Virus record (IMG/VR): IMGVR_UViG_3300027651_000001
Coordinates: 1 to 41,175 of that record
Origin: a virus
Reading direction: 5' to 3' (one strand)
Length of the DNA: 41,175 nucleotides
Shown: piece after piece, positions 390-28,702 of the stretch
Numbering within the stretch: position 1 is the first letter of the stretch
Layout: each line of letters opens with the position of its first letter
Translations under genes and position numbers: made by a program
The notes under the pieces: generated by a model
Told to the model about the DNA's origin: nothing
The model's input: only the letters and a program-made list of their open reading frames with translations
Databases searched by the model: none

Positions 390-411
390 ATCGTGGGCAG
401 GGCTAGGAGGA

Positions 412-2025: not shown

Positions 2026-2028
2026 GCA

Positions 2029-2220
2029 ATGGCCGAAGAAGAACCGTTTTCCCGGCAGGAGTGGGACGCAGGCGTACGCCGCACGATGGGCTCTCGCCGC
2101 CGCAACCGAGAGCGCGCCTACCGCCAGGAGCGCGCCAGGCTGATAAACTGGACCTGCGGAGCAGTGGCGATGCTGCTGCTCTTGCTCCTGGTCGCCTATC
2201 TGCTGCTGGATCCGAGGTAA
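2029..2220 (+). CDS. Small membrane protein (63 aa, one TM helix)
   Basis: C-terminal hydrophobic stretch AVAMLLLLLLVAYLLL after a basic N-terminus. Confidence 0.55.
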   Translation: MAEEEPFSRQEWDAGVRRTMGSRRRNRERAYRQERARLINWTCGAVAMLLLLLLVAYLLLDPR

Positions 2221-2230
2221 GGAGAGGATC

Positions 2231-3115: not shown

Positions 3116-3483
3116 ACACTGAGAGAAAGGAACACATCAGGGAAGCCCTTGACGACTGGAGCGAGAACCGCAGAGTTTCAACGCTGGAGGTGATACCCCG
3201 GTGCCCGGAGTGTCGCGCCACTGTCGCGTCGGGAGCAGGAGGGCACCACCCTTCCTGCTCCTTCCGGGAAAGGGTTAGGCAGGAGAGGCCGACCGGACTG
3301 CAGGCACGCCCCGCCGTCGTCACAGGACCAGGCGCAGAGGGGTTGGTCGTAGCTACCCCGGGACCGCTCCGGGCAGACGAGACGTGGCTGGGCGGCGACA
3401 AGCGCACAGAGCTACAACGAGCGGCGGCGACAGAGGCCCGTAAGTCCGTCATCGCACAGTTCAGACGAGGGAGATTTGCATGA
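3112..3483 (+). CDS. Hypothetical protein (123 aa) with a CPEC...HHPSC metal-binding-like motif
   Basis: ATGA overlap with the upstream gene; in-frame internal start of the 3010-3483 ORF. Confidence 0.55.
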   Translation: MNTERKEHIREALDDWSENRRVSTLEVIPRCPECRATVASGAGGHHPSCSFRERVRQERPTGLQARPAVVTGPGAEGLVVATPGPLRADETWLGGDKRTELQRAAATEARKSVIAQFRRGRFA

Positions 3484-4307
3484 GCAACGCATTCCAGGGC
3501 GAACTGGAAGTCAGCCCCGACCTGCCCCAACTCAGCAGGCGGGAGGCGGAGATCCGCACCGCGCAGAACATCAGCGAAGGCGGCAAGGCTGCCATTGGCC
3601 TGTACCTATTCGTCCGGCAGGGCGGACTCAGGGCCTCGGGCACGCACTTTGAAGACTACTGCCGAGACGTGTTCGGGATCGCCGAACGCACCGGCCGGTA
3701 CTGGCTGGCAAGGGTCCGGGCAACCCTCGTCGCCCGGGGCATCGGTGAGCAAAACCTGCTGGCCTACTACATGACCGCAAGCACGAACCTGCGCCTGCTG
3801 CCGACCGCGCTAGCTGTCGAGGTCTGCCGCCTACCACCCGGCCAAGCCCTACCCGCCTACGAACGATGGGCAACCATCAGAGGCGACGAAAAGGGAGGCC
3901 GCAAGAGCGCCGCGAAGGACTTCCGGAAGATCGCCGCACAGATGTTCGGAGATCAAAACGCCGCAACGGTTGCGGCGCAAGCACACTCTGGCACTATTAA
4001 GCAACCAGAAGCAAATATGATTCAACCTCCTCCTACTCCCCGTGAGGCCCCGGAGGAGACGGTCGGGCAGGACTCCGGAGAGGATGAGAGCAGGATGTTT
4101 GCGGCCCCCACCACGGAACCGCCGCCCTGCCCCGACTGCGGGGAACCTCTCTCGGACGGCTGCCAGTCCATTACCGAGTTGACCGTGACTTCTGCGACGC
4201 CCCACGCCGCCGGGAACTTCTGGCTGGTGAGGGCGACGGACGGGAACGGCCGGGCGTACGTCATGCGCCTGAACAGGAGCATACTGCAGATGGAGGAGAG
4301 GCAATGA
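3480..4307 (+). CDS. Putative DNA-binding / replication-associated protein (275 aa)
   Basis: N-terminal HTH-like segment FEDYCRDVFGIAERTGRYWLARVR; C-terminal CPDC...C motif; translationally coupled. Confidence 0.5.
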   Translation: MSNAFQGELEVSPDLPQLSRREAEIRTAQNISEGGKAAIGLYLFVRQGGLRASGTHFEDYCRDVFGIAERTGRYWLARVRATLVARGIGEQNLLAYYMTASTNLRLLPTALAVEVCRLPPGQALPAYERWATIRGDEKGGRKSAAKDFRKIAAQMFGDQNAATVAAQAHSGTIKQPEANMIQPPPTPREAPEETVGQDSGEDESRMFAAPTTEPPPCPDCGEPLSDGCQSITELTVTSATPHAAGNFWLVRATDGNGRAYVMRLNRSILQMEERQ

Positions 4308-4564
4308 AAACGAAGGCGCCCACGCCCCCACAGTTGGCCGTGCTGCAGGCCGTCCACGACTACAACGCGCACCACCGGCTGAACCCCACCTACCGGGACG
4401 TGGTGAAGCGCGTAGGGATCAGCTACAGCAACGTTCAATTCAGGGTCAAGGCTCTGCTGCAGAAGGGCCTGCTGACCAACGAGCCCGGAGTCGCCAGAAG
4501 TCTGGCGCTCACTGCAGAGGGCGAACGCGCGATCAAGGAGGCCGCCAGTGGACGCGCAGCATGA
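4304..4564 (+). CDS. Winged-helix (LexA N-terminal/MarR-like) DNA-binding protein (86 aa)
   Basis: PPQLAVLQAVHDY...PTYRDVVKRVGISYSNVQFRVKALLQKGLL is a typical wHTH pattern. Confidence 0.6.
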   Translation: MKTKAPTPPQLAVLQAVHDYNAHHRLNPTYRDVVKRVGISYSNVQFRVKALLQKGLLTNEPGVARSLALTAEGERAIKEAASGRAA

Positions 4565-4754
4565 GGAGTTCCGAGCCGCAGTTCGGCAGATGCGCAACGC
4601 TCAAAAGAAGTTCTTCCGAAGCGCCCCGGGCACCCAAGACAGAGAGGACGCATATGCAGACTCCCGAAAATGGGAGCGCAGAGTCGACAAAATGCTCAAA
4701 CCGCAGCAACTCTGCCTGCTGGAAGAGATGGAGGTGGGCAGTGCAGATCCTTAG
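4548..4754 (+). CDS. Hypothetical protein (68 aa)
   Basis: GTG-start ORF bridging the wHTH and helicase genes, overlapping both. Confidence 0.45.
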   Translation: MDAQHEEFRAAVRQMRNAQKKFFRSAPGTQDREDAYADSRKWERRVDKMLKPQQLCLLEEMEVGSADP

Positions 4755-6528
4755 ACCCTACCAGGTCGCCGCCGCCGCCGCCGTATGGGAGGCGCACGAC
4801 GACTTCTTCAACTCCGTCCTGATCGTGATGCCTACCGGATGCGGCAAGACGACCGTGCTGGCGCAGATCGTCAAAGAGGCGTTGCGGCGGGAATGGTACG
4901 TGCTGGTCACCGCGCATCGCTACGAGATCGTGCAGCAGCTCTATGAGCGTATCCGCTCTCACTGCGACCTCTGCCCGTTCACGGACATCGGGATCGAAAT
5001 GGCCGACACGAGGGCGCCGGGTTCGGCCCGGGTCATCTGCGCTTCTGTCGATACCATCGTCAACCCGAAGCGCATCCCCGAATTTAAGGCGAAGGTCTCC
5101 CTGCTCATTCGGGATGAGGCCCACCGGGGAGCGTGCGACACGGATCGCAAGATCGCCGAGCAGTGCGGGGTAAACGAGCAGCGATGCTTCTACCTCGGCT
5201 GCACCGCCACGGCAAAGCGCTATGACAAGCAAAGCCTCTACGCCTTTGGGGAGGACGGAGCGCCGGTAAGGCTGAAGGACAAAAAGGGCGTGGAGTTCGA
5301 CGCCAAACCTGCCGATTGCATCTTCGAGAAGTTGGCCTACGAGTACCCCCTTGAGGATGCGATCGAAGACGGTTGGATCGTCGAGCCCAAAGGCCACACG
5401 GTCAAAACCGTTACGGACCTCCGGAAGGTCAAGAAGACCGCAGGCGATTTCAATATCGGGGAGTTGTCAAAAGCCATCGACAATGCGACCCGGACCCTGG
5501 AAGCTATCCAGGGATGGAAAGAGGCCGGGGCCGACACCCGGCCGACGCTCGCCTTCTGCGCGACCGTTGAACACGCCCACCATAGCGCCGAACTGTTCCG
5601 AGCGGCCGGCTACACCGCCGCCGCCATCGACGGCACCACCGAGAAGATGGAGCGCCATCGCACCTTTGCCGACTTCGCCGCTGGCCGGTTGCGCGTCCTC
5701 TGCAACGTCGGAATCGCCACGGAGGGAGTCGACCTGGTCAACTGCGGCTGCGTCATCCACCTTCGGCCGACCATGAGTTGGGGACTGTTCTGTCAGATGA
5801 CCGGCAGGGGAGTACGGCCCGTGCTGTCCCTCCCGAACGAATGGACAGCATCGGAGCGCCGCGCCGCCATCGCCGCAAGTGACAAGCCTGACCTTATAGT
5901 GATCGACGTCGTTGACATCACGAGCGGCAAGGATCTCTGCACGACGCCCTCCCTGCTGGACCTACCGGCCGGGCTGGACCTGCAAGGCGTCGGCGCCCTG
6001 GAGGCAAAGAAGCTACTGGAGGAGTTCCGGGAGGTCAAGGACCGCGTGATCGGAGAATGCCCGGTCACCTACGAGGAACTGAAGGTGCGGCTGGAGGCGG
6101 TGAACCTGCTGATGCGGAGCGCCGTACAGTCGCGCGACGAATGGCGCGTCACACCGGACGGCTTCCAGTACAACCGCGTCCGACCCTTCTACAGCATCAA
6201 CATGGAGAAGGACGGCGACTCCTTTGTGCTGCGCGTCAAGCACGCCCAGGAAACGATCTGTGAGCGGCGCGGCAAGCCCGGCGAGGATTTCACCCGCTAC
6301 CTGGAGAGCGCGCGCAAGCATGGGCAGGAGGTCATCGACGCACATTTCAAGGCGAACGTGACCTCCCGTGGGACACTGGCGAGGCTAACGGAGAAGCAGC
6401 AGCGCGTCCTCCGACGCCGCCACACCCTGCCCGAGATCGACGCCATGCCGTACGCGAAAGCGAAAGCGCTGATAGGCAAATACTGTGAAGAGTACCGGCA
6501 GAGCAATCCTGACTACTTTGCCGCGTGA
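4741..6528 (+). CDS. SF2 DEAD/DEAH-box helicase
   Basis: Walker A MPTGCGKT, motif II IRDEAHRG, later motifs ATEGVDL and QMTGRGVR; GTG start at 4741 after GGAGGTGG. Confidence 0.85.
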   Translation: MQILRPYQVAAAAAVWEAHDDFFNSVLIVMPTGCGKTTVLAQIVKEALRREWYVLVTAHRYEIVQQLYERIRSHCDLCPFTDIGIEMADTRAPGSARVICASVDTIVNPKRIPEFKAKVSLLIRDEAHRGACDTDRKIAEQCGVNEQRCFYLGCTATAKRYDKQSLYAFGEDGAPVRLKDKKGVEFDAKPADCIFEKLAYEYPLEDAIEDGWIVEPKGHTVKTVTDLRKVKKTAGDFNIGELSKAIDNATRTLEAIQGWKEAGADTRPTLAFCATVEHAHHSAELFRAAGYTAAAIDGTTEKMERHRTFADFAAGRLRVLCNVGIATEGVDLVNCGCVIHLRPTMSWGLFCQMTGRGVRPVLSLPNEWTASERRAAIAASDKPDLIVIDVVDITSGKDLCTTPSLLDLPAGLDLQGVGALEAKKLLEEFREVKDRVIGECPVTYEELKVRLEAVNLLMRSAVQSRDEWRVTPDGFQYNRVRPFYSINMEKDGDSFVLRVKHAQETICERRGKPGEDFTRYLESARKHGQEVIDAHFKANVTSRGTLARLTEKQQRVLRRRHTLPEIDAMPYAKAKALIGKYCEEYRQSNPDYFAA

Positions 6529-6537
6529 GGAGGAACA

Positions 6538-6690
6538 TGAGAAGACCGCTGCTATTGGATCTTTTCTGCGGAGCGGGGGCAGGGAAGCGTGAGACCGTTA
6601 CGGACGCGCCTAGCCAATACCTCCCTGCTATGCCTACAGAGACAGCAGTCAAGGGCAAGAAGTTTCGAGAGAGAAAAGGGGAAGCATGAG
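6538..6690 (+). pseudogene. 50-aa mini-ORF starting with a SAM-methyltransferase motif I-like sequence (LLDLFCGAGAG); possible C5-methyltransferase remnant
   Basis: MRRPLLLDLFCGAGAGKRE... with a strong GAGGAGG upstream; the ORF ends after 50 codons and no later MTase motifs follow. Confidence 0.3.
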
Positions 6691-6907
6691 CAGTGAAGCA
6701 AGCGAGAGAGAGGCGGATCGCATTGCATGGAAGCACGGCGACTCATTCCTCTGTGAAATCCAGATAGAGAGCCTTTCCACAGAGATCCTTGCGGCGCTGG
6801 ATGCAGCCGAGGAGCGAGGGCGCGTAGAAGCCACGCACACAGCGCAAAAGGCCGTACCCCTACCAGACCGACACCGCGAGGGGCAAACGAGCCCACCGCC
6901 TACGTAG
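6686..6907 (+). CDS. Hypothetical protein (73 aa)
   Basis: ATGA overlap with the upstream mini-ORF. Confidence 0.5.
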   Translation: MSSEASEREADRIAWKHGDSFLCEIQIESLSTEILAALDAAEERGRVEATHTAQKAVPLPDRHREGQTSPPPT

Positions 6908-6949
6908 GGACGGCCTGTGAGCCGGATTGAAGCAAAGAGAGGAAAGCAG

Positions 6950-7267
6950 ATGAAACGAATCGTACTTGTCGGGCCGATGACCAGACTGCCCGACTTCAAC
7001 CGTCCGGCGTTCCACCGAGCAGCAGAGGGTCTGCGGGCACAGGGATACACGGTTCACAACCCCGCAGAAGTCCATGAGAAGTGCCGAGAGGACTACATGC
7101 GCCGATCTATCATCGCAATCTTGGAGGGAGAATGGATAGTTACCCTCCCTGGCTGGGAGGACAGTCAAGGCGCCTGCCTGGAGGTTCGTGTCGCTCGCGC
7201 CATCGGAACGCCGGTGCGCGATCTGGCCGGGATGCTCAGGACGCCGACGACGGAGGAGAAACCGTGA
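6950..7267 (+). CDS. DUF4406 (nucleoside 2-deoxyribosyltransferase-like fold) protein
   Basis: MKRIVLVGPMTRLPDFNRPAFHRAAEGLRAQGYTVHNPAE...LPGWEDSQGACLEVRVA matches the DUF4406 pattern; GAGGAAAG upstream of the ATG. Confidence 0.65.
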   Translation: MKRIVLVGPMTRLPDFNRPAFHRAAEGLRAQGYTVHNPAEVHEKCREDYMRRSIIAILEGEWIVTLPGWEDSQGACLEVRVARAIGTPVRDLAGMLRTPTTEEKP

Positions 7268-7458
7268 AGATTGCTCGTCGTTTCTGGAATGGCTACTGCG
7301 GAAACTGTGATTGCGAGTGGGAAGGAATGCTTCAGCAGAACATCTGCCCAATTTGCGGATCGTCAACGGTTGACATCCGTGAAGTGGGATATGAAGGTCC
7401 AGGTATTACAGTTCTTCCGTCAATTTCCCGACGCGCACTTCAGGAGCGTGAACCATGA
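7264..7458 (+). CDS. Zinc-ribbon mini-protein (64 aa)
   Basis: CGNCDC...CPICG motifs; GTGA start/stop overlap. Confidence 0.55.
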   Translation: MKIARRFWNGYCGNCDCEWEGMLQQNICPICGSSTVDIREVGYEGPGITVLPSISRRALQEREP

Positions 7459-7673
7459 ACACCTGCCCCAACCTGAACGGTAGCCGCGTCCGGGTGCTGT
7501 ACGGCCCCTACAAAGGCCGCACGCTCACCGTGACGCATACCTACCCGAGAGGGCGCTACGAAGCGGCATCGCCGGGAAACTACGGCGCACGTATCTACCG
7601 GCGCGACGAACTGCAAGTCATCGCACCGCCGACGCCTGACGCACTCGAAGAGGCGATGAAGGACGAGCAATGA
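7455..7673 (+). CDS. Hypothetical protein (72 aa)
   Basis: ATGA-coupled ORF in the operon. Confidence 0.5.
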   Translation: MNTCPNLNGSRVRVLYGPYKGRTLTVTHTYPRGRYEAASPGNYGARIYRRDELQVIAPPTPDALEEAMKDEQ

Positions 7674-7858
7674 CCGAAGAGGCGCGAGCAGAGTACTGCC
7701 AGGACTGCCGGGGCGACGCCGTTTCCTGCTACGTCCGTCGTCTCTACCGCTACGGACTGCAGCGGCTCAAGGCGCAGGACATCGTCCGGGAGGAAGGCTG
7801 GTACTGCCGATGTGGCTGCCACGAACAAGAGGAAGGGATGAAGGAGGGGAAGGCGTGA
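7670..7858 (+). CDS. Cys-rich mini-protein (62 aa)
   Basis: CQDCRGDAVSC...CRCGCH; ATGA-coupled. Confidence 0.5.
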   Translation: MTEEARAEYCQDCRGDAVSCYVRRLYRYGLQRLKAQDIVREEGWYCRCGCHEQEEGMKEGKA

Positions 7859-8775
7859 AAGTTCTGAACCACATCGGCGTATCGGGCGGCAAGGATTCGA
7901 CGGCTCTAGCGTTGTGGGCACGCTACGAAAGCGGATATGATCCAGCTTCACTCGTGCTTTCGTTTTGCGATACAGAGAACGAATCGCAAATTGTCTATGA
8001 TTACGTGCAGATGCTCTCGGAGAAGGTTCACCCCGTTACGATTCTGAAGCCTGAAAGAGACTTTTGGGAACTGGCGCGGCATAAGGGGCGCTTTCCCTCC
8101 GCGAAAGCCCGATTCTGCACAGAAGAACTGAAGATGAAGCCGACAAAGTTGTTCGTCAACGCTCTGCGGCTTCTCAATGTCGAACCGCTTATGCACTCAG
8201 GCGTCAGGGCCTCCGAGAGTGACGACAGGGCAAAACTACCTGAAAGAGAGATGTCTCTCTACTTCGGCGCAGAGGTTTACCGTCCCCTCCTACGATGGAG
8301 CATTGAGGACGTGTGGGCAATCCACAAACGCTATAATATTCCGCCGAATCCCCTCTACGCGATGGGTTGTAAGCGCGTCGGCTGTCTACCCTGCGTCATG
8401 TCGCGCAAGAAAGAGATCGCAAACATTGCGATCCGATGGCCGGAGCGAATTGACGCAATTAGAGACATGGAATCGTCTATAAATCCTGGCGGCTACGCTT
8501 CCATGTTCCATCGAAACACGGTTCCCTATCGATTCAGATCAAAGGAGATTGTCACCTCCGAGAAGCGCATTGAGGAGAGGCCCAACCCGGAAGGGCAGAC
8601 CTTCATCCCTCTTGAGGACGTGCGACAGACCACGCGACCGGGACAGCAGATGCGCGTCGCCACTATAAACGACGTGGCACGGTGGGCAATGAATGACGCT
8701 TCAATCTACGAGGAGGAGTTCGATTTCTTCGAGGAATCTCCTGCCTGCGATTCGCGGTACGGAGCGTGTGAGTGA
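7855..8775 (+). CDS. PP-loop ATP-pyrophosphatase, PAPS reductase / DndC-like family
   Basis: SGGKDS PP-loop near the N-terminus and a C-terminal KRVGCLPC motif; GTG start overlapping the upstream stop. Confidence 0.75.
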   Translation: MKVLNHIGVSGGKDSTALALWARYESGYDPASLVLSFCDTENESQIVYDYVQMLSEKVHPVTILKPERDFWELARHKGRFPSAKARFCTEELKMKPTKLFVNALRLLNVEPLMHSGVRASESDDRAKLPEREMSLYFGAEVYRPLLRWSIEDVWAIHKRYNIPPNPLYAMGCKRVGCLPCVMSRKKEIANIAIRWPERIDAIRDMESSINPGGYASMFHRNTVPYRFRSKEIVTSEKRIEERPNPEGQTFIPLEDVRQTTRPGQQMRVATINDVARWAMNDASIYEEEFDFFEESPACDSRYGACE

Positions 8776-8783
8776 ACCGGCAC

Positions 8784-8812
8784 TTGACAGCGCCGTCCAC
8801 ATCTGATATACT
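8784..8812 (+). promoter_or_regulatory. Near-consensus sigma70-type promoter TTGACA-N17-TATACT
   Basis: TTGACA at 8784-8789, 17-nt spacer, TATACT at 8807-8812, 9 nt after the upstream stop codon. Confidence 0.7.
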
Positions 8813-8988
8813 GAGGGTGGCTAACGTGGGATGACAATTTCAGATGTGCGGCCTCCCAGCCCACGCGAAACACACCCTGCGCCCCTCGTTAGCCACGAAA
8901 TGCAGGGTGTGTTCTTGTTTGGTTCTCCAAATTCGATTCCGGGGCTCATGACCCCGGTTGCTCCCGGCGATACCATCGCCGGGAGCGT

Positions 8989-9058
8989 TCCGACCTACGC
9001 AAACGGCAAAGCGGCCCTTAACCGGGTGATTCTGGGGGTTCAACTCCCTCGGTCGGAA
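8989..9058 (+). ncRNA. tRNA-like module with a non-canonical (shortened) anticodon arm
   Basis: 7-bp acceptor TCCGACC/GGTCGGA, U8, D-arm with a GG loop, T-arm GGGGG-TTCAACT-CCCTC; the anticodon arm has only a 4-bp stem and a 6-nt loop (TTAACC). Confidence 0.35.
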
Positions 9059-9447
9059 TAAGCAGGTACATCGTGATGACCTGGCCTCTCAAGCGGGTAC
9101 GGTAGCAGCATTGCACCGACCTCCGGAAAGCCCGGACCCCGACCGAAGCGGCGAGGTGGACTCAAAACCGTGGAGGTTCCCGGGAAGGGGAGTAGTATCC
9201 CTGAGACCGTGGCGACGCATCCAGCCCGCAAGGCTGGCCCGCCGACAACTGCACACCGACTATACTTCAGACTCATTTGTCAGCGCTGGCAGGGGCAGCC
9301 ATACCTCTGCGGGCTGGGCAAAGGGCTGGATTGGGGCTGGATTGGGGCACGGGCAAGCGACATCCTGGAGAGCGCGCACCGGACTACCAACACAGGACAC
9401 CGACCAGAGGCTGAAGGCAGGCGGGAGCAGGAGAGGAGGGAAGCGGA

Positions 9448-9475
9448 GGGGTGTAAGGAGTGGGGCGAAGCCCTC
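9448..9475 (+). terminator. Intrinsic terminator ending the noncoding unit
   Basis: GAGTGGGG (9448-9455) pairs with CTCCACTC (9463-9470), including one G-U, and is followed by TTTTT (9471-9475). Confidence 0.6.
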
Positions 9476-9519
9476 CACTCTTTTTGGCAAAGTACTTTAT
9501 GGAAAGGAGCAGCAGCGGT

Positions 9520-10326
9520 ATGGGATACGCAGCGAAGATCGTAGCAGACAGCATCGGCCCTAACGCAATCAGGCTTACGACGATGGAGGTGACGTTCCCC
9601 CGAATCGTGCTGGCAGAGTTCAACACGCACCGTATGTTCAGCCGGAACTCTGCGTCAAGCCGGGCAATTCCCGTCGATAAGATGATCCGGCGGGTCATAG
9701 ACGATCCGTTCATTCCTGCGAAGTGGCCGCAGAATCAGAAGGGTATGCAGGCGACGGAATACCTGACGGGCGATGACGCACTTATGGCAGAGCGTGCGTG
9801 GCTGTTGGCACGTAACTCCGCGACGGAACACGCCTCGCGCCTACTGGAGTTAGGCGTCCACAAACAAATCGCCAACCGCCTGCTTGAGCCGTTCCTCTGG
9901 CATACCGTCATCGTGACGGCGACCGAGTGGAGCAACTTCTTCGCCCTGCGCTGTCACCCCGACGCACAGCCGGAAATTCAGGCCGTTGCCTACATGATGC
10001 AGGAACTTTACAGCACCGAAGAGCCTACGCAACTCCAACCCGGCGACTGGCACCTGCCATACATCCGAGAGGAGGAGCGGGACTCGGAAGAGTTCGATCT
10101 TCGCCTTGTCAGCGTCGGCCGGTGCGCTCGCGTCTCTTACCTGACGCACGACGGCGTACGCGATCCTGCTCAGGATGTGGGGCTGTGTGAGAGGCTTCGC
10201 AGCAGCGGCCACTGGTCGCCGTTTGAACACGTCGCCATGTGCCGCAACGCAGGCGACCTATCCCAGTCAGGAAACTTCAAGGGTTGGGATCAGTTCAGAA
10301 AGGGGATGGTCGGTGAGTGTCGATAA
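9520..10326 (+). CDS. thyX: FAD-dependent thymidylate synthase ThyX-like protein
   Basis: THRMFSRNSASSR fits the ThyX signature RHRxxSxxxxSxR except that the first Arg is Thr; RBS GGAAAGGAG upstream. Confidence 0.7.
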   Translation: MGYAAKIVADSIGPNAIRLTTMEVTFPRIVLAEFNTHRMFSRNSASSRAIPVDKMIRRVIDDPFIPAKWPQNQKGMQATEYLTGDDALMAERAWLLARNSATEHASRLLELGVHKQIANRLLEPFLWHTVIVTATEWSNFFALRCHPDAQPEIQAVAYMMQELYSTEEPTQLQPGDWHLPYIREEERDSEEFDLRLVSVGRCARVSYLTHDGVRDPAQDVGLCERLRSSGHWSPFEHVAMCRNAGDLSQSGNFKGWDQFRKGMVGECR

Positions 10327-10543
10327 GAAGGAGGCAGTAGACCATCCTGCCCACTATGGCGGCGAGTCAAACCCTTACGAGGTGATCAAGGTTATAGAGG
10401 CATGGAACCTCGGGTTCTGCCTGGGGAACACAGTCAAGTACATCGCACGGGCCGAACACAAGGGCGCGACGGTGGAAGACCTTGAAAAAGCGCGGTGGTA
10501 TCTGGATAGGGAGATCCAGCGGCGCAAAGGCGTCAGTGAGTAG
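10313..10543 (+). CDS. DUF3310 family protein
   Basis: HPAHYGG...YEVIKVIEAW...GNTVKYIARAEHKG..EDLEKARWYL is the typical DUF3310 pattern; GTG start overlaps the thyX end. Confidence 0.7.
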   Translation: MSVDKKEAVDHPAHYGGESNPYEVIKVIEAWNLGFCLGNTVKYIARAEHKGATVEDLEKARWYLDREIQRRKGVSE

Positions 10544-10574
10544 GTAGCCTCAGAGGAGGCAGAAAGAGGGTACG

Positions 10575-10913
10575 ATGGCAAGCATTTTCGATTTCATTTT
10601 CGGGGCAGGCATGAAGGTCGGGGCGATTACCAAGATACCGGGTGACCTCGGCAAGGTCAAAACGGACTTCGCGGCCGACGCTGCGGCGATCCGGCACATG
10701 GCGACCGATGAGGGCGGCGCTATGGCGGCGATCCGGCGCCTGTCTCAGAATCCGCTCCTGGTAAGCGCGGCCCTCGCCGACCAGAACATCTCCGCAGACA
10801 TCACGACCGTGGAGGTGTTCTTGAACGACGCCCAGACCATCGAGGGGATCGTCACGACGGCGGAGGCGGACTTCGCGGCGCTGGAGACCGATGTCACGTC
10901 GGCCATCGGCTGA
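10575..10913 (+). CDS. Hypothetical protein (112 aa); last gene of the + block
   Basis: ORF with GAGGAGG upstream; followed by a convergent terminator hairpin. Confidence 0.55.
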   Translation: MASIFDFIFGAGMKVGAITKIPGDLGKVKTDFAADAAAIRHMATDEGGAMAAIRRLSQNPLLVSAALADQNISADITTVEVFLNDAQTIEGIVTTAEADFAALETDVTSAIG

Positions 10914-10926
10914 AAGAGGGAAAGGT

Positions 10927-10959
10927 CTGCTGCCTGGCGAGCGTCCCGCCAGGCAGCAG
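10927..10959. terminator. 13-bp-stem hairpin between the convergent + and - blocks (bidirectional terminator candidate)
   Basis: CTGCTGCCTGGCG (10927-10939), 7-nt loop, CGCCAGGCAGCAG (10947-10959). Confidence 0.6.
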
Positions 10960-10960
10960 T

Positions 10961-11422
10961 TCAGTTTCCTTTCGAGGGAGCGGGACTGTCCTTTAGGACT
11001 CGGTACAGGTCCGCAATGCTTGTCTTGATCTCTGCAGACGCGGTAGCTTCGTCCGTGTGGTACTTGTTCAGGTCGTCCCTCAGTGAGTCGCTACGTGCCG
11101 CAAGCGCGTCTTCCGCCTTCTCAAGTTCCTTTTGCTTTGCCTCTGTCTCTCTGTGATACTGCTCCGTCCTCTCTACCAGGGTGGCATAGTTGGCTGCGTT
11201 TGATGCGGAGTAGACCACCACCATGCTGCCGCAGGAGAGGAGGAGGGTTATGCAGGCAATCAGCAGTTGCGCCATTGAGACGTTCCTGCTGCCGCTGTCC
11301 GTGGGCGTGTCGGTCGTCTTCTGTGGCGACAACTGTTTTCCTCCTGCTTGATCGTTGGCACCAGTCAGGCAGGCCGTAGGGCCGCTTCCATTTGCTGCGT
11401 TCTGCAATGCTGTTCTGTCCAT
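10961..11422 (-). CDS. Membrane-anchored coiled-coil protein (i-spanin/Rz-like candidate)
   Basis: TM helix LLIACITLLLSCGSMVVVY followed by a charged coiled-coil region; last gene of the late operon; the true start may be the internal MAQLL. Confidence 0.5.
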   Translation of the reverse strand: MDRTALQNAANGSGPTACLTGANDQAGGKQLSPQKTTDTPTDSGSRNVSMAQLLIACITLLLSCGSMVVVYSASNAANYATLVERTEQYHRETEAKQKELEKAEDALAARSDSLRDDLNKYHTDEATASAEIKTSIADLYRVLKDSPAPSKGN

Positions 11423-11444
11423 AGTGCGGCCTCTTCTTTGTCGA

Positions 11445-11873
11445 TTATGGGCCGGGAGGCGGTGCGCCTGGTCCGGTCGGGGGAGTGTATGACGGGATGT
11501 GGAACCGCATCTTGTAGCGTCTTCGGGGCGGTGAGTAGTGCCGGAACGGAGGAATGGTCGGGTGTGGCAGGCGTATGCGCTTCCTGATACGGCGGGTTGG
11601 GGGCGAAGTCGCCTGATCCTCCGGTGTCACCACGTCGCACAGGAGGCTATCGCCCACGGCGTACCCGTCCGATCCTATATACGATCCGTCGTAGTCCCCC
11701 ACGTTCAGGATGAAGATTTCGTTCTCGGCAAGGGGCTCGGAGCAGAACGCGTCGTCGGGCAGGCTTCCGTCGTCGGAGTCGTCGTCTCCCTCCTCGAACC
11801 AGGCGCATACATCGTACTCCTCCCCGATGTTGGTATCCGGGGTCGATCCGTCGCACATGAACGTATCACTCAT
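11445..11873 (-). CDS. Bipartite protein (142 aa): very acidic N-terminal half, Pro/Arg-rich C-terminal half
   Basis: ATG at 11873 overlaps the upstream stop; sequence EEYDVCAWFEEGDDDSDDGSLPDD... is followed by SPPTRRIRKRIRLPHP... Confidence 0.5.
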   Translation of the reverse strand: MSDTFMCDGSTPDTNIGEEYDVCAWFEEGDDDSDDGSLPDDAFCSEPLAENEIFILNVGDYDGSYIGSDGYAVGDSLLCDVVTPEDQATSPPTRRIRKRIRLPHPTIPPFRHYSPPRRRYKMRFHIPSYTPPTGPGAPPPGP

Positions 11874-12087
11874 GCCGTCCTTCCTCCTGTTTCTGTTCCG
11901 CCCTGCCCTCTGCCTTTCCGAGCGCGCGTTGTTCCCCGCCCGTCGCCTCAAGGAGTTCGTCCATGCGGCTATTGATGAGGGTGTGAGTCTCCTTCTGACG
12001 CCTCCCGTTCTGCCAACACTTGTAGTAATTGGCGGCAAAGGCTCCGATAATCAGCAAACTCTTCACGTCGTCCGATGATAGGTGCAA
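11866..12087 (-). CDS. Small single-TM protein (holin-like candidate, 73 aa)
   Basis: TTG start after GGAGG; TM segment SLLIIGAFAANYY; charged C-terminus. Confidence 0.4.
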   Translation of the reverse strand: MHLSSDDVKSLLIIGAFAANYYKCWQNGRRQKETHTLINSRMDELLEATGGEQRALGKAEGRAEQKQEEGRHE

Positions 12088-12103
12088 GGGAACCTCCTAC
12101 AGA

Positions 12104-12134
12104 GACGCCCCTACAGATCTCCCGTAGGGGCGTC
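12104..12134 (-). terminator. 11-bp-stem hairpin after the Ig-like protein gene (attenuator/terminator candidate; no clear U-tract)
   Basis: GACGCCCCTAC (12104-12114) pairs with GTAGGGGCGTC (12124-12134). Confidence 0.35.
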
Positions 12135-12142
12135 GCGTCACG

Positions 12143-12589
12143 TCACTGCGCGATCGGCGGGTCCGCGGTCAGGGAGAGGGTGACGACCGGCGGCGGGCCG
12201 GCCGCGGTCGTGGTGATGTTGGCGACAACGGTGTCGCCTGCGCTGTCCTCGAATTTGACGATGCCGGAGGTCGGCGCGGCCGCAACGCCAGCGACGAAGA
12301 AGGCCATCGGGTCGGGCGTCGAGGCGACAACGAGGTTCGGATTGTCCGAGGTCGCCGTAACGCCGGTCAGCGAAGAGGTGACATCGGCGCCGTTCTCATC
12401 GGTGCCTTTAACGTGGATCAGGGCCTTCTCGTTGGCCGGGAACGAGAGAGTGATTGGGGTTCCGGTGGTGCTCAAGATAGTGGCTCCTTTCGGGAGGTCC
12501 GTGAAGAGTAGGGACAGACATTTGCGACCCATTATCGCAATGTCGATATGGATATGTACGGTCTGTTGGCACATCGGCATTCCTCCCAA
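12143..12589 (-). CDS. Ig-like (Big_2-like) domain protein (148 aa)
   Basis: Beta-rich sequence ...ITLSFPANEKALIHVKGTDENGADVTSSLTGVTATSDNPNLV... typical of phage Ig-like domains. Confidence 0.5.
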   Translation of the reverse strand: MGGMPMCQQTVHIHIDIAIMGRKCLSLLFTDLPKGATILSTTGTPITLSFPANEKALIHVKGTDENGADVTSSLTGVTATSDNPNLVVASTPDPMAFFVAGVAAAPTSGIVKFEDSAGDTVVANITTTAAGPPPVVTLSLTADPPIAQ

Positions 12590-12608
12590 CTCAGTATACC
12601 CCAGGCCA

Positions 12609-12944
12609 TTAGGGCGTCGGAAGGATGACTATCTGTTGCTCGAAAATGGCAATGTCGCCGTCTGATGTCTTGACGGTGAAGGCGCAGGGATAGTTCCCCG
12701 CCTGTGTGATCGTCTTGTTGGCCCCGGTCTGCATCACGTACCAGAGCTTCACCCCGCCGTTGCGTAGAAATTCGAGGGTGAGAACCGGGAAGGCGCTGAC
12801 CAGGTGGTTCCCTGCGCTGTCCCAGCAGTCGAAAGTCGCAGACAGGAATATCTGGGAGGCGGGCGGGCCGGAGCGATTGATGAAGTCTACCGACACCCCA
12901 AACCGCTCCCCCAGTTGCCGGGTTTTCGAGAAGGTCGATCTCAT
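12609..12944 (-). CDS. Hypothetical virion-associated protein (111 aa)
   Basis: In-frame ATG at 12944 downstream of the preceding stop; the longer 13043 start would overlap the upstream gene. Confidence 0.45.
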   Translation of the reverse strand: MRSTFSKTRQLGERFGVSVDFINRSGPPASQIFLSATFDCWDSAGNHLVSAFPVLTLEFLRNGGVKLWYVMQTGANKTITQAGNYPCAFTVKTSDGDIAIFEQQIVILPTP

Positions 12945-12973
12945 CTCCTGCAGGTTGGCGATCTCTCTACCTC

Positions 12974-13336
12974 CTACGAAAGTAGCGCAAACACGGTAAC
13001 GGCGGAGCCCGGATTGGTGTTTCCCGTTGGCGTCGTGGTGCAAGCCATCGAAAGTGCCGTCGCGAATGGCATTCCCAGGAAGTCAAGGAAGAACGTCCTC
13101 TTAACGCCTACGTCCACCATGAGAACCGCGTCGGGCGGCGTGGTGCCGACCGTCGGCGCCGCGTTGTTGAACATCTGGAGGTAACTCTTCGCTACGTTCG
13201 CCGTGTTGTCGATGGTGACCACGTAGACGGTCGTCGCGCCGCCCCGGATATTGGTGTCGGCGGTCGCGTTGAGGTTCGTGTTCCCGTAGTTGACAGCCGC
13301 GTACGGATTGGCGTTGGTCGTCAGAGTTTTGCTCAT
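12974..13336 (-). CDS. Hypothetical structural protein (120 aa)
   Basis: ATGA overlap with the upstream gene; Thr/Asn/Ala-rich, beta-type composition. Confidence 0.5.
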   Translation of the reverse strand: MSKTLTTNANPYAAVNYGNTNLNATADTNIRGGATTVYVVTIDNTANVAKSYLQMFNNAAPTVGTTPPDAVLMVDVGVKRTFFLDFLGMPFATALSMACTTTPTGNTNPGSAVTVFALLS

Positions 13337-14121
13337 TTGCCCCACTTCCCTCTTTTAACGAGGTGCCGCTCAAAATTCACGGTGATCGAAGAGCCCCCGG
13401 TGTTCCAGACGACGACTTGCCATTGGAATCCCGGAGAGACCTTGATATGCGCCTGGTTGGTCATCCCTGTCCCGTCGGCCGCTGTCGTCGTACTGGGAAC
13501 CTGATCTCCGTTGTACCACGTCACCCCGCCGTCCGTGGTGAACTGGTAATCAAGATTGAAGGGACCGCTGCCCTGGACGGAAACAATCTGCTTCAACCCC
13601 TCCCGCACCGGCGTCTGGATCGGCCCCATTAGAATATACCCGGTTCCGGCCGGTATGCCTACCGCCGTCCCGCTGGCTGCCTCCGTCGTGCCGCGTGACG
13701 TGAGCGTAGGAGGCACGTAGGGCATATTCGCCGCCGGGATTTGATCGTTGCTCCTCAGGATCTGAAACGGCGGCACTCCTGCGAACTGGGGGAACTGGTA
13801 GAGATGCTGGGGAGGCTGCGCGCCCAGCACGGTAATGGGTAGGGATGTTGGTACGCAGGCCCCGCCGCTGCCTATATTGGGGACCGGCGTGATCGTTTTC
13901 ACTCCGGCTACGTTGGGTGCATTGTAGACAAAAGTTTTCGTGGCCGTGCTTGAGGCCCACGACAGGACGGCGGGCGTGAAAGAGCCTCCTGCCCCGCTGT
14001 CGTTGATGACAACATTACCGGTGAACAGGGCGGTAGGTGTGAGCGTGAAATTCCCCGATACCCCTCCGGCTGCGACCGTAGCGGGTCCGGTGAAATCTAT
14101 TTCAATGGCGGCTATCGGCAT
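13333..14121 (-). CDS. Tail fiber/adhesin-associated protein with a BNR (Asp-box) containing C-terminal domain
   Basis: FNLDYQFTTDGGVTWY contains the SxDxGxTW-type Asp-box; the domain is paralogous to 21710-22147. Confidence 0.5.
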   Translation of the reverse strand: MPIAAIEIDFTGPATVAAGGVSGNFTLTPTALFTGNVVINDSGAGGSFTPAVLSWASSTATKTFVYNAPNVAGVKTITPVPNIGSGGACVPTSLPITVLGAQPPQHLYQFPQFAGVPPFQILRSNDQIPAANMPYVPPTLTSRGTTEAASGTAVGIPAGTGYILMGPIQTPVREGLKQIVSVQGSGPFNLDYQFTTDGGVTWYNGDQVPSTTTAADGTGMTNQAHIKVSPGFQWQVVVWNTGGSSITVNFERHLVKRGKWGK

Positions 14122-14124
14122 AGG

Positions 14125-14802
14125 TTATGCCTGCGTGGTGAAGAAGATTTTCGTGTCGTCGCACGTCGAAGCCGAAAACACGAGACAGACAGAGTTGCCG
14201 TTGAGATCGGCGGCGGCGAGGTTGATGAGGAACACGCCGTTGACACCGGCGACCGCAGAGATAGCCCCGGAGTTGGTGAGGGTGGAAGTTACGCCGTCGA
14301 GGACGACTTTGCCCGTCACCGTGGCACCTGCGCCCATGTAGGGGCTGATGTGATCGGAGGCTACGGTCATAGGGAATTGGAAGTTGGCGAAGGCGGTGTT
14401 CTTCTGGATCGGATACTGCACGATGCAGCTTGTATCCATCTGGATTTCAAGGTCTATCGTCTTCATTCCCGTCGATGTTCCGCCGTTCGCCATCAGGCAG
14501 ACAGCAACGCTTTTCCCGCTGGCTATGGCCGCGTTCGGAATACTCAGTTCGTACTGTCCGGCCATGTGAGTCGCGCTGCGCTGGATGAAGCCTCCTCCGG
14601 TTCCTGCCCCTCCGCTGTTGACATAGGTTCCCTGCGTGCCTGCCGCGAGCGTGATTGCAATAGGAGCGCTCCCCTGAATACAGTAGTACGCGGTGATGTC
14701 GCTGAAGAGGACGCCCGTCAAGTCCGCTCCGGTGGCGAGCAGGGTTGCCTTGACGGTAACAACAAGGTTTGTCGTGCCGGGTGCGATTCCGAGTTTAGCC
14801 AT
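14125..14802 (-). CDS. Tail fiber/spike-associated protein (225 aa)
   Basis: ATG at 14802 after GGAGGG; beta-rich Gly/Thr/Ala composition. Confidence 0.5.
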   Translation of the reverse strand: MAKLGIAPGTTNLVVTVKATLLATGADLTGVLFSDITAYYCIQGSAPIAITLAAGTQGTYVNSGGAGTGGGFIQRSATHMAGQYELSIPNAAIASGKSVAVCLMANGGTSTGMKTIDLEIQMDTSCIVQYPIQKNTAFANFQFPMTVASDHISPYMGAGATVTGKVVLDGVTSTLTNSGAISAVAGVNGVFLINLAAADLNGNSVCLVFSASTCDDTKIFFTTQA

Positions 14803-16711
14803 CAAGCCCTCCTGTAAGTTGCTGCATCCCGCCTGAGAAGTCCGGGAAAGAGATTGGGTTTGCCGGGGGAGACATGGCAAGCAACATCCGCTGAGCGACG
14901 CGCGTTCCGCTCCTCGGGTTGGCCGGCGGTGGCGTCCCCTGGTTCGGCGCTGCGTACATGTGCAGACCGTCCGTGCCTGCCCCTGTGTTGGTTACGTCAA
15001 CGAGGTCTGTATCGTTGTTCGGATAGGTATAGTCGGCATAGTAGCCGCTGACAGGGACGTTGAGAATGGACGGGTGTCCATCTCCAACCGCCTCCGTGTC
15101 AGCCGCCTGCACCATAGAGGCGTAGGAGGGGTTTGCGGCGACGAATGCGGCGACGGCAGGTTGAATCACACTGGTAAAGATTGTGTGCCAATAGGCGGGC
15201 GTGATTGTCGCACCTGTCGGGAAGCCTGCCCTTCCGTTGTTGTCTCCGTTGGAGGATACGCGCGGGGACGGAGGGAAAAACCACCACTTGATACCGGAGG
15301 CAGGCCCATTCGTCAGCAAGGACGTGACCATCGACTGATACTCGGTCACGGCAAGCGCGATGAACCCCGCGTAGTTTCCGCAGTTGCCATAGGCTGCGTT
15401 ATAGTAGTAGTTTGGCGTCGGAGGACCGTTCGGGTAACCGGCCCAATCGTTTGTAAAGTAGCTGGTCGCGCCGGTGTCGATCAACTGGTTCGGGTTGGCA
15501 GCGTTCCATGTTGCGATGAAAGCACCCATTGTGGGGGCGTACCAGGCCCCCGCGTGCTGGTCGTAGTGGATGACCGCCGCCCCGCCGTAGCTGAAATTGC
15601 AGAGCCCCCTGCCCATCAACTGCGCCAGGTTCCACGCCCATCCTCTATCGCCCGGTTGCTGCAATCCGCCGTTCTGGACATACGTCTGATTGATCGGAGT
15701 AGAGGGGTTGTTCGCCCCGGTGCTGTCCGTGTAGACGCAGATCATGGGGCGTCGCCTGTCGGTCGATTGATCCAGCCCGCCGCCCGTCCCCGCGATGCAG
15801 ATACCCGAGAGGCTGAACCCCGCTCCGTCGCAATGTACGATGTCGATGATATCGCCACCCGTCACGGCGCAACAGTCGTAGACATCCATAGGAAACCCGT
15901 TGGGTCCTGTCCCGCCGCCGGGCAGGATGTACTGTGAACCGTTGGTGTTGCCGGTTATCGGGGCAGGCGCACCGTTCTTCCAGATCGCCACCACGCCGGA
16001 CTGCGCGGCGCTCATCAGCAGCGATAGGTGCGTGCTCCCTGCCTTGACCTTTATCCGCAGGTTATGGCAGCAGGTTCCGGGAACCGGGTTAAAGGCGGTC
16101 GGGTAGGACTGCGCGGGCATACCGGAGATGCCGCCGCTGGCAACCCAGTCATGTCCTTCGTAGGCTACCGCGCCGGTCGTAATGTTGGCCCCCGCCACGG
16201 TCGGGGTCGTGGACATCATCACGCACTGCCCGAAGGGGACGTAGCCGATCACGGTAGGGGAGAGTAGGACCGGTGTCCCGCCGCTGTCGTAGATGTGGAG
16301 CGTAGCGTCCGGGAACATGTTGAAGGTCTGGACGGGACTGTATATCAGAACCTCATGCGTCCCGGCGGCAAGGGGAGTGTTGGGAATAAGGTAGGGAACG
16401 AAGGTTGTACTCCCGATGCTTGTCAGTTCGTACGATCCGTCAACCAGGCTGCCAGAGTAGTACGTATTGTGGAGAGCGCCCGCCGCGCCGAACGTATCGA
16501 TGGCGTGAGAGGTTCCGTCAACGACCGCCAGGACCGGCGTGCCGTTGAACTTCCAGTTGCGGTATTGGATGTCGCCGGTTCCGGTGAGCGTGAACTTGAC
16601 GACAGCCATAGAGTACGCGCCGGAGGAACCGAATTGGTTGCTTCCGTCTATCGCCCATGCGCCGACCATGCCCACAGGGGCCGTTGTTACCGGAACCGCA
16701 AGGTAGCCCAC
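14795..16711 (-). CDS. Tail spike / receptor-binding protein (638 aa)
   Basis: GTG start after AAGGAG; large beta-rich protein directly after the fiber gene; VYTDSTGAN weakly resembles SGNH block I (unverified). Confidence 0.5.
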   Translation of the reverse strand: MGYLAVPVTTAPVGMVGAWAIDGSNQFGSSGAYSMAVVKFTLTGTGDIQYRNWKFNGTPVLAVVDGTSHAIDTFGAAGALHNTYYSGSLVDGSYELTSIGSTTFVPYLIPNTPLAAGTHEVLIYSPVQTFNMFPDATLHIYDSGGTPVLLSPTVIGYVPFGQCVMMSTTPTVAGANITTGAVAYEGHDWVASGGISGMPAQSYPTAFNPVPGTCCHNLRIKVKAGSTHLSLLMSAAQSGVVAIWKNGAPAPITGNTNGSQYILPGGGTGPNGFPMDVYDCCAVTGGDIIDIVHCDGAGFSLSGICIAGTGGGLDQSTDRRRPMICVYTDSTGANNPSTPINQTYVQNGGLQQPGDRGWAWNLAQLMGRGLCNFSYGGAAVIHYDQHAGAWYAPTMGAFIATWNAANPNQLIDTGATSYFTNDWAGYPNGPPTPNYYYNAAYGNCGNYAGFIALAVTEYQSMVTSLLTNGPASGIKWWFFPPSPRVSSNGDNNGRAGFPTGATITPAYWHTIFTSVIQPAVAAFVAANPSYASMVQAADTEAVGDGHPSILNVPVSGYYADYTYPNNDTDLVDVTNTGAGTDGLHMYAAPNQGTPPPANPRSGTRVAQRMLLAMSPPANPISFPDFSGGMQQLTGGLDG

Positions 16712-16723
16712 TCAGTACTCTCC

Positions 16724-17404: not shown

Positions 17405-17458
17405 TTATTCACCGAAAACCGGCAACGCGTTGCCGGTTTTGTCTACTGGTTTGTCTAC
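17401..17458 (-). terminator. Terminator module: two GTAGACAAA repeats, then a palindromic hairpin and TTTTCGGTGA (paralog of 40809-40866)
   Basis: Palindrome AAAACCGGCAACGCGTTGCCGGTTTT at 17415-17440; TTTGTCTAC at 17438-17446 and 17450-17458 (+ strand). Confidence 0.6.
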
Positions 17459-19951: not shown

Positions 19952-19954
19952 TCA

Positions 19955-28676: not shown

Positions 28677-28702
28677 AATGTTGCCATCTGCCTCCTCTGA
28701 GG

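Follow-up and report, generated by a model that had tools for sequence, protein, structure and literature searches.

How is a stretch of about 745 nucleotides (nt) without a gene to be explained in a compact phage genome? The question is raised by IMG/VR record IMGVR_UViG_3300027651_000001, positions 1 to 41,175 (the whole of this stretch is called the window here), the complete or near-complete genome, about 41 kb long, of an uncultivated phage. Its positions 8776–9519, between a gene resembling PAPS reductase and thyX, form a gene-free gap which makes up 1.8% of the genome. An earlier note had described most of this gap as an orphan, structured transcription unit of 0.66 kb. The analysis reported here found that the gap is noncoding, that it begins with a near-consensus promoter, and that its modular cassette recurs in at least four further uncultivated phages, with compensatory base changes in four helices. 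By sequence comparison these cassettes constitute a small RNA family of five members which is absent from Rfam 15. That the cassette as a whole is a functional, processed leader or noncoding RNA has in our estimate about an even chance (0.5).

A Noncoding Gap with Its Own Promoter

The GC content by codon phase is flat between 8800 and 9500 (about 0.6 in all three phases) as compared to 0.6/0.42/0.72 in both flanking genes, and gene calling for the Logan record had placed nothing in the gap. Open reading frames (ORFs) of 76–150 amino acids (aa) are present inside it, which is what can be said for a hidden protein-coding gene or a pseudogene. These frames, however, yielded no match to Pfam or PHROG, and tblastx of the gap for pseudogene remnants and for similarity to relatives gave only noise. 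The homologous gaps introduced below behave in the same way: tblastx among the five detected no similarity, no codon-phase signal with 3-nt periodicity was seen in them, and the distances between their conserved blocks differ by numbers which are not multiples of three. A coding explanation thus deserves next to no credit, and the noncoding nature asserted in the earlier note is borne out.

At its upstream end the gap carries a sigma-70 promoter (Table 1), also named in the earlier note, which has a TG in its spacer and scores 11/12 against the E. coli-type consensus. It is the sole match of at least 10/12 within positions 1–20000 and one of four such sites in about 40 kb, the other three being situated in the early control region at 38.5–39.2 kb. 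Transcription is predicted to start at about 8818–8820. An operator common to the gap and to the early promoters was considered and rejected, as CACATCTGA occurs at chance rate.

Related Cassettes in Other Phages

Relatives were found via the superfamily 2 (SF2) helicase encoded upstream of the gap, for which proteins were searched, contigs looked up and IMG/VR scanned by alignment. Contigs with helicases 48–53% identical to that of the window proved to be phages of similar size, several of them with a gene-free gap downstream of the helicase gene (703 nt in L242, 381 nt in L250, about 420 nt in L247, and 743 nt in L243). A further phage, L082, is a relative by its ThyX protein and has a 443-nt gap before thyX, which at first seemed unalignable and unstructured. 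L242, L250, L247, and L082 are the four phages which share the cassette; all carry a related SF2 helicase (38–53% aa identity), and the cassette is always located 0–3 kb downstream of the helicase gene. The orphan status claimed in the earlier note has therefore to be given up.

Length and content of the cassette vary among the members, from 381 to 745 nt, as the modules are distributed unevenly. A 5′ element is found in the window, L242, and L250, and is missing from L247 and L082. The core, comprising TCAAGC, a hairpin called Hb, and a hairpin of the form NNNGG-AAAGC-CCNNN, occurs together with the purine tail in the window, L247, L242, and L082, and is divergent in L250. A hidden Markov model (HMM) of this core gave E values of 1e-6 to 1e-11 in those first four phages and had no other match in the loci fetched, about 1.8 Mb in all. 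The purine tail is kept in all five members, and every copy of the cassette ends directly at the ribosome-binding site (RBS) of the next gene.

Outside this group little similarity was detected. Blastn of the window genome against INPHARED phages and PLSDB plasmids found no DNA resembling it, and the gap or its homologs, searched by blastn against the same collections, had no match. Blastn and nhmmer of the gap against 80 thyX loci from IMG/VR found nothing. Helicase relatives among cultured phages reach only 27% identity. In the search for synteny via ThyX and PAPS reductase, an alignment-based genome scan returned only distant matches, the best being an Acidobacteriota metagenome-assembled genome at 48%. 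A contig from a second sample, L081, is an identical copy of the phage and therefore offers no microdiversity to exploit.

Two scans led away from the cassette. In metagenomes, all 107 of 107 matches to GGGAAGNGGAG..GGGCGAAGCCC were an unrelated hairpin family resembling repetitive extragenic palindromes (REP) or chance; a second, a palindrome scan of IMG/VR, matched what appears to be the origin stem-loop of a CRESS-type single-stranded DNA virus, a coincidence. The metagenome loci in question (L090–L196) represent an abundant repeat family of sediment and groundwater, unrelated to the cassette, in which a CCCCTTCCCC..GGGGAAGGGGAG palindrome is followed by a GAGAGGGGCGAAGCCCCTCTC hairpin; it has a REP-like look and often occurs in several copies per contig.

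Helices Kept by Compensatory Changes

The 5′ element has the same order of parts in the window, L242, and L250: a −10 box, 4–5 nt, the 5′ arm of helix H1, AATTTCAnAnTGTG, the hairpin H2 with a loop pairing to H1, and TGTTTG. The −10 boxes of the homologs read TATACT (L242) and TATATT (L250), and the distance to H1 is constant in all three phages. The single-stranded motif between the H1 arm and H2 reads AATTTCATACTGTG in both homologs, and a regular expression for it matches just these three loci in the 1.8 Mb. The H1 sequences are almost wholly different among the three phages, and each still forms 12–13 pairs from an arm of 12–14 nt; H2 is a hairpin of 12–13 bp with a conserved base (CACCCT/AGGGTG), and the connectors are short (0–7 and 5–10 nt). 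The topology thus recurs with different sequence. Seven of 12 pairs in H1 and three of nine in H2 are compensatory, H2 being 100% paired. With both helices concatenated, 10/21 pairs are changed on both sides and 96.8% of the cells are paired, whereas none of 500 shuffles reached any of these measures and sliding the partner by 1–3 columns left 30–47% paired.

As the 3′ arm of H1 resides in the loop of H2, the two helices are interleaved. They would form either a strained pseudoknot burying the 5′ end of the RNA or two competing folds, and either arrangement would be apt for stabilisation or gating shortly after initiation.

In the core, all four pairs of the lower stem of Hb are compensatory across four sequences, as are three of the five pairs of the hairpin B5, which was also recovered independently by RNAalifold. 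For both helices combined, the four phages yield 7/9 compensatory pairs with 94% paired. The strand on which these structures lie is taken from the promoters, the orientation of the tRNA, and the T-loop sequence.

Folding energies single out the 5′ third of the gap. Compared to shuffled sequences, excess folding is limited to about 8800–9080, with a z score of −4.9 for 8813–9062 and values down to −5 in a sliding 120-nt scan only between 8800 and 9080. The remaining 400 nt or so are near shuffles (z −1.4 for 9060–9485, sliding windows −1.4 to +1.7). Of the inverted repeats of at least 11 nt in the whole window, 4/19 fall inside the gap. The pair of perfect hairpins at 8939–8986 has a z score of −6.6; it is specific to this lineage, without a counterpart in the homologs, and an exact-pattern scan of IMG/VR for it gave zero matches.

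The earlier note had regarded the whole 0.66 kb as packed with helices. All the helices which it listed are present, and two of them are longer than it stated, at 12 bp each (8869–8880/8902–8913 and 8960–8971/8975–8986). Compensatory changes in homologs support the one it gave as 8871–8880/8902–8911 and that at 9122–9136, and its acceptor-like helix 8989–8995/9051–9057 turned out to be part of a tRNA-derived cloverleaf. Folding clearly better than in shuffles, however, is a property of the first 250 nt or so. The heptamer CACCGAC does recur at 9114, 9254, and 9398, as it had pointed out, but without significance (10 observed versus 8.4 expected genome-wide; by our own estimate, allowing any heptamer, a triple recurrence in 745 nt is not unusual), and CCGACC, which does occur four times, is over-represented throughout the genome (67 observed versus 45 expected).

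A tRNA in Several States of Loss

Between the 5′ element and the core is a slot for a tRNA, which by sequence and predicted fold is occupied by a decayed tRNA in the window. Its acceptor helix consists of 7/7 Watson-Crick pairs, and U8, the GG of the D-loop, a 5-nt variable loop, and the T-arm (GGGGG/UUCAACU/CCCUC at 9034–9050) are canonical. Acceptor and 5-bp T-stem with a UUCRANY loop, that is, the minihelix recognized by RNase P and the CCA enzyme, are found at 8988–9059. Defects are seen in the D and anticodon arms (a D-stem of 2–3 bp; either a loop of 6 nt or a G-G mismatch), and no CCA is encoded. The element is the sole call of ARAGORN in the window at the 95% threshold, a setting which gave six extra calls in 894 kb of other phage DNA.

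A bona fide tRNA (RF00005) was rejected because of a best tRNA-clan score in Rfam of 15.3 bits versus a gathering threshold of 29, the lack of an ARAGORN call at default settings, and the defective arms. A tmRNA, standard or permuted, was rejected as well, as ARAGORN -m found none even at lowered thresholds and Rfam gave no match; the acceptor pairs are U1-A72, C2-G71, and C3-G70, without the G3-U70 of tmRNA. The 21-mer of T-arm and acceptor is absent from 185,579 species genomes and a 23-mer is absent from IMG/VR, and no recombinase or integrase domain was found among the scanned ORFs, which are part of those in the window. It is therefore not considered to be an attP copy of a host tRNA. A single-sequence covariance model (CM) of the hairpins and the tRNA-like element retrieved only a real tRNA, in L030.

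In the homologs the slot is occupied to different degrees. L242 has a genuine tRNA-Arg(TCT) of 56 bits, L247 only an acceptor/T-arm minihelix, and L082 and L250 have nothing there. That the tRNA body is lost by degrees while acceptor and T-arm are kept suggests that the minihelix is retained as a site for RNase P and RNase Z.

The gap of L243 (10410–11152, also in L244) is a case of its own. It contains three to four T-arm-like motifs GGTTCGAnTCC, one of which passes as a tRNA with 39.9 bits and, according to ARAGORN, a 4-base anticodon 'caca', and a B5-like hairpin GCCGG-GAAAGA-CCGGC. Possibly several degenerate or unusual tRNA-like elements are arrayed there.

Core, Purine Tail, and 3′ End

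Directly after the tRNA-like element comes the first block of the core, for which L247 has ATAAGCAGG with a GCAGG/CCTGC hairpin. No variation in TCAAGC is seen among the window, L247, L242, and L082. Further downstream, GGCAAGCG is also found in L247 and L082. The six-run G cluster at 9311–9352 contains one of only four canonical G-quadruplex (G4) motifs on both strands of the window. The purine-rich tract seen by the earlier note is real, with an AT skew of +0.72 and a GC skew of +0.37 to +0.45 at 9380–9500, and the tails of L247 and L082 match each other over 33 nt (E 0.003).

The hairpin with TTTTT which the earlier note had set at the end of the unit does exist, at 9457–9485, and is weak: 9457–9481 forms 7 plus 2–3 bp with −17 kcal/mol (z −0.7), compared to −30 to −33 kcal/mol for the clear terminators of the phage at 10927–10959 and 38631–38661. 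A GCGAAGC-type hairpin occupies the same place in L082 and L247, with GCGC for GGGC and without a U-tract. The element is probably a weak, leaky terminator or an attenuator, as judged from its predicted stability.

Between tail and RBS three members have short AT-rich palindromes of the type (A)GTAC(T) or ACAGT..ACTGT (window 9489–9498, L082 about 5950–5985, L250 about 10375–10390). That of the window folds no better than chance (z +1.0). They could be operators or hairpins sequestering the Shine-Dalgarno (SD) sequence.

Table 1: Features of the cassette in the window (MFE, minimum free energy).
Feature	Position	Strand	Description
Sigma-70 promoter	8784–8812	+	−35 TTGACA 8784–8789; 17-nt spacer with TG; −10 TATACT 8807–8812
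H1 5′ arm	8818–8830	+	predicted first ~13 nt of the transcript; pairs with 8883–8895 in the H2 loop; 12/13 paired
Conserved single-stranded motif	8836–8848	+	AATTTCAGATGTG; between H1 5′ arm and H2
H2 hairpin	8869–8913	+	12 bp perfect, 8869–8880/8902–8913; 21-nt loop with H1 3′ arm (8883–8895/6)
Conserved TGTTTG	8916–8921	+	after H2; then small hairpin 8918–8922/8927–8931 (in MFE fold)
Two adjacent perfect hairpins	8939–8986	+	6 bp, 8939–8944/8952–8957; 12 bp, 8960–8971/8975–8986, loop ACC
Degenerate tRNA-like cloverleaf	8988–9059	+	72 nt; acceptor 8989–8995/9051–9057; called by ARAGORN only at 95% threshold
TAAGCAGG and hairpin Pa	9059–9083	+	TAAGCAGG 9059–9066; Pa 9063–9067/9079–9083; directly after tRNA-like element
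Conserved TCAAGCG	9089–9095	+	contains TCAAGC
Hairpin Hb	9100–9118	+	CGGU.GCA / UGCA CCG; conserved apex AGCAGCAUUGCA
Hairpin B5	9122–9136	+	UCCGG-AAAGC-CCGGA; invariant GGAAAGCCC at 9125–9133
Conserved motif	9141–9150	+	GACCGAAGCG; common to window and L247
G-run cluster	9311–9359	+	G-quadruplex motif 9311–9336; 11-nt tandem repeat (GGGCTGGATTG ×2) 9323–9344; GGCAAGCG 9352–9359
Purine-rich tail	9405–9462	+	family consensus ~GCGGGGAAGAGGA..UAAGGA; several SD-like runs
Imperfect 3′ hairpin and U5	9457–9485	+	GGGC-GAA-GCCC core 9463–9473; UUUUU 9481–9485
Palindrome, thyX RBS, and ATG	9489–9522	+	10-bp palindrome AAAGTACTTT 9489–9498; RBS GGAAAGGAG 9501–9509; ATG 9520

A Proposed Processed Leader and Its Alternatives

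According to the reading we favour, host RNA polymerase would start at the near-consensus sigma-70 promoter, and the first 12 nt or so of the RNA would pair with a hairpin loop 50–90 nt downstream. The tRNA slot would come next, in this phage with the D and anticodon arms lost and a perfect acceptor/T-arm minihelix kept, followed by a core and tail of about 430 nt with two covarying hairpins, single-stranded motifs, and the purine 3′ tract with its GCGAAGC-type hairpin. Its transcript would be the long leader of the thyX-DUF3310-orf112 operon, and RNase P and RNase Z would cut this transcript where the tRNA-like minihelix lies. The upstream fragment would be stabilised by its 5′-end-locked structure and by the 12-bp hairpin 8960–8986, a cap 2 nt upstream of the minihelix, while core and tail would remain part of the thyX mRNA and tune its read-through and translation by way of the weak hairpin with U5 and the SD-like purine tract.

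With its strong E. coli-type promoter, its pairing of the 5′ end to a loop, and its graded tRNA states, the cassette is a small and tractable example of a structured phage RNA. The series of intact, degenerate, minihelix, and absent forms suggests that a tRNA has been repurposed as a processing signal. If processing or gating does occur, it would be a parallel in a bacterial virus to the tRNA-like 3′-end processing of eukaryotic long noncoding RNAs and a new way for phages to time genes of nucleotide metabolism. A bolder version is less likely than not: the cassette might define a new class of phage regulatory RNA, with a 5′ end locked to, or switching against, a downstream hairpin loop, a minihelix as processing site, and a freed purine-tailed RNA of about 400 nt controlling expression or priming replication via an R-loop.

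Several observations weigh against a processed leader. The next gene is thyX in only two members and an unrelated small ORF in three, which speaks against a leader specific for thyX; comparison of the proteins encoded after the cassette found no homology, except possibly between L242 and L250. Close relatives by PAPS reductase (70–74%) and by ThyX (61–64%) lack the cassette, and most of the ThyX and PAPS-reductase relatives (at best 65% and 74% identical) have no gap at the matching place, so that it is dispensable or mobile. The differing downstream genes, together with this absence, are evidence of mobility; the cassette is probably lineage-specific and mobile. About 250 nt at its centre (9150–9400) are variable, with structure at chance level. 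The compensatory changes were counted in three to five sequences only, with helix arms which had been chosen in each sequence by complementarity and concatenated, which introduces an ascertainment bias. Furthermore, all pairs are Watson-Crick with zero G-U, so that an RNA structure and a DNA structure are not separable by sequence alone.

Some of these points would be expected if the cassette encoded one or more stand-alone, trans-acting noncoding RNAs freed by tRNA-type processing, a phage 'ncRNA moron' in the manner of GOLLD, ROOL, or the stable RNAs of T4. Placement before unrelated genes in different phages and absence from close relatives are what a mobile cassette would show; it brings a promoter of its own as well as a hairpin with U5 before thyX, and core and tail are kept where promoter and 5′ element are missing (L247 and L082). 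Against this stand the weakness of the 3′ hairpin, the lack of a U-tract in L247 and L082, the ending of each copy directly at an RBS, and the lack of a candidate for target or partner protein. We regard such RNAs as conceivable, though clearly not probable. The weak 3′ hairpin and the missing U-tract lead us to consider core and tail mostly as a leader of the downstream mRNA, and read-through into thyX as likelier than the discrete RNA of about 660 nt proposed in the earlier note. A CsrA sponge was also considered and is unsupported, as GGA motifs are only 0.5–1.7 standard deviations above expectation. A more sceptical explanation takes the cassette for a decaying tRNA moron, a former tRNA transcription unit which is now a largely neutral remnant with chance hairpins. 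It accommodates the tRNAs intact in L242 and L243, the 15 bits scored here, the minihelix in L247 and the empty slots in L082 and L250, as well as the variable, unstructured central 250 nt and the absence from close relatives. Core, tail, and 5′ element, however, outlast the tRNA, with compensatory changes across about 50% helicase divergence, damage to the tRNA has spared a perfect acceptor and T-arm, which is non-random decay, and 1.8% of a compact genome is spent on the cassette. We therefore consider a neutral remnant unlikely; if it were true, the cassettes would be a record of the erosion of a tRNA locus in phage genomes.

Two further explanations carry still less weight. In a folded RNA driven by the strong promoter, the G- and purine-rich 3′ tract with its G4 motif might form a persistent RNA-DNA hybrid beside the replication genes and act as a transcription-primed replication or R-loop element, for which ColE1 RNA II, T4 oriF/oriG, and mitochondrial CSBII are parallels. 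The extreme purine skew on the non-template strand, the conservation of the tail in all five members, the six-run G cluster, and the constant position 0–3 kb downstream of a helicase gene are in line with this idea. The cumulative GC-skew minimum, on the other hand, is near 39–41 kb, in the divergent early-promoter region, and not at 9 kb, the homologs do not keep canonical G4 motifs, neither an AT-rich unwinding element nor iterons are present, and the tail abuts the RBS, which makes a replication element quite improbable. Less compatible still with the findings is the large ornate RNA of the GOLLD/ROOL kind which the earlier note had in mind. The cassette is indeed phage-borne, noncoding, several hundred nt long, and adjacent to a tRNA or tRNA-like element, but it has no GOLLD or ROOL match at E≤10 in 8700–9600 of the window and none in the homologs, only about five short helices have comparative support, 400 of about 660 nt fold like shuffles, and length and content vary among the members. 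This explanation is barely tenable.

Resemblance to Known RNAs

The covariance-model search which the earlier note had recommended found no known family. With Rfam 15 at gathering thresholds the whole window gave no match, GOLLD, ROOL, OLE, HEARO, and raiA included, at E≤10 with lax filters the region 8700–9600 gave only chance-level scores of at most 19 bits, with nothing for GOLLD or ROOL, and the homologous loci gave only tRNAs. Little of the structured noncoding RNA of phages has been charted, and the functions of GOLLD and ROOL are unresolved. These two, among the few large ones described, are tRNA-associated phage RNAs. The cassette resembles GOLLD (RF01998) and ROOL (RF03087) in being noncoding, phage-borne, hundreds of nt long, and adjoined to a tRNA; it differs by lacking a CM match, by a much simpler and partly absent structure, by its length of 381–745 nt, and by its position directly ahead of an ORF. 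What is new is the distinctive pairing of the 5′ end to a loop and the tRNA-derived module, within the known group of phage-borne, tRNA-linked noncoding RNAs.

The C4 RNA of phages P1 and P7 and the CI RNA of P4 are cut out of an operon leader by RNase P and act on that operon. Like these, the cassette lies in a phage operon leader with a tRNA-like, possible RNase P substrate and with genes downstream on the transcript; unlike these, it has no identified complementary target pairs and no sequence or CM similarity, the Rfam library, which presumably includes the C4 family, having given no C4 match. In the eukaryotic nuclear RNAs MALAT1 and MEN-beta, a tRNA-like element (mascRNA) is the RNase P signal next to a protective 3′ structure. 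Similarly, the 12-bp hairpin 8960–8986 ends 2 nt before the cloverleaf, and a hairpin-protected 3′ end is predicted. The cassette is not homologous to MALAT1, however, its cleavage is only predicted, the hairpin is lineage-specific, and the match to mascRNA in Rfam is trivial (11.7 bits, in the T-arm).

The put RNAs of phage HK022 and the EAR element are antitermination RNAs which act in cis close to a promoter. The put RNAs are about 70 nt long, consist of two bulged stems, bind to the zinc-binding domain of the beta′ subunit, and suppress downstream terminators (PMC9378689). The cassette resembles put and EAR in position only, being a structured RNA just after a phage promoter and before a terminator-like hairpin. 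In contrast to put, its helices are perfect and interleaved, sequence similarity is lacking, the downstream terminators are weak, and two members are without the 5′ element. The T4 tRNA cluster yields the stable RNAs 'species 1 and 2', and 3′ETS-leuZ is a small RNA derived from a tRNA spacer. The RNA of the cassette would likewise be noncoding, share a transcript with a tRNA, and be freed by tRNA processing; homology is lacking, and in most members the tRNA has degenerated or can be dispensed with. Compared to tRNA itself (RF00005), the cloverleaf has the canonical acceptor, U8, D-loop GG, variable loop, and T-arm, and is set apart by its 15 versus 29 bits, its defective D and anticodon stems, and the missing CCA.

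Genome Context and Other Observations

The gap interrupts a rightward block of early or middle genes, with the SF2 helicase (4561–6528), DUF4406 (6917–7267), and the PAPS-reductase-like gene (7810–8775) before it and ThyX (9520–10326) and DUF3310 (10175–10543) after it. The block is closed by the strong terminator at 10927–10959, and the identity of ThyX is confirmed by Pfam and PHROG searches of the ORFs in the window. The structural genes are on the opposite strand: large terminase 27276–28733(−), portal 24506–26500(−), and major head protein 22186–23310(−). Four very large ORFs of 1427, 830, 638, and 523 aa (31728–36011(−), 17459–19951(−), 14795–16711(−), and 35878–37449(−)) had no match in Pfam or PHROG at the thresholds used.

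Over the whole window the cumulative GC skew climbs from about 6 to 26 kb and drops from 26 to 39 kb whatever the orientation of the genes, which points to about 26 kb as the terminus of replication and to the surroundings of 39–41 kb or 0–6 kb as its origin.

The early control region (38400–39240) is rich in signals. A near-consensus promoter with TG (TTGACA-17-CATAAT, 38562–38590) is followed by the strong 12-bp terminator 38631–38661 with UUUUU, and the two could, as predicted elements, give rise to a small RNA of about 70 nt. Other strong promoters are at 38810 (12/12) and 39208, and TTGACA boxes were seen by eye near 38682 and 38760. A module of GATCCCGGCCTTTTTGTCTCGT with AATTCCACAGTTTGGGT about 30 nt on is duplicated, near 38652/38700 and 39138/39176, several perfect palindromes of 11–13 bp occur, and the small ORF 38869–39077 looks, on reading its sequence by eye, like an excisionase or AlpA-type helix-turn-helix protein. 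Further along, a perfect inverted repeat of 19 bp with a 6-nt loop lies at 39918–39961 within a DNA-methyltransferase ORF region, and a perfect 24-nt palindrome, AAAGGTGCAACGCGTTGCACCTTT, is located at 40828–40851.

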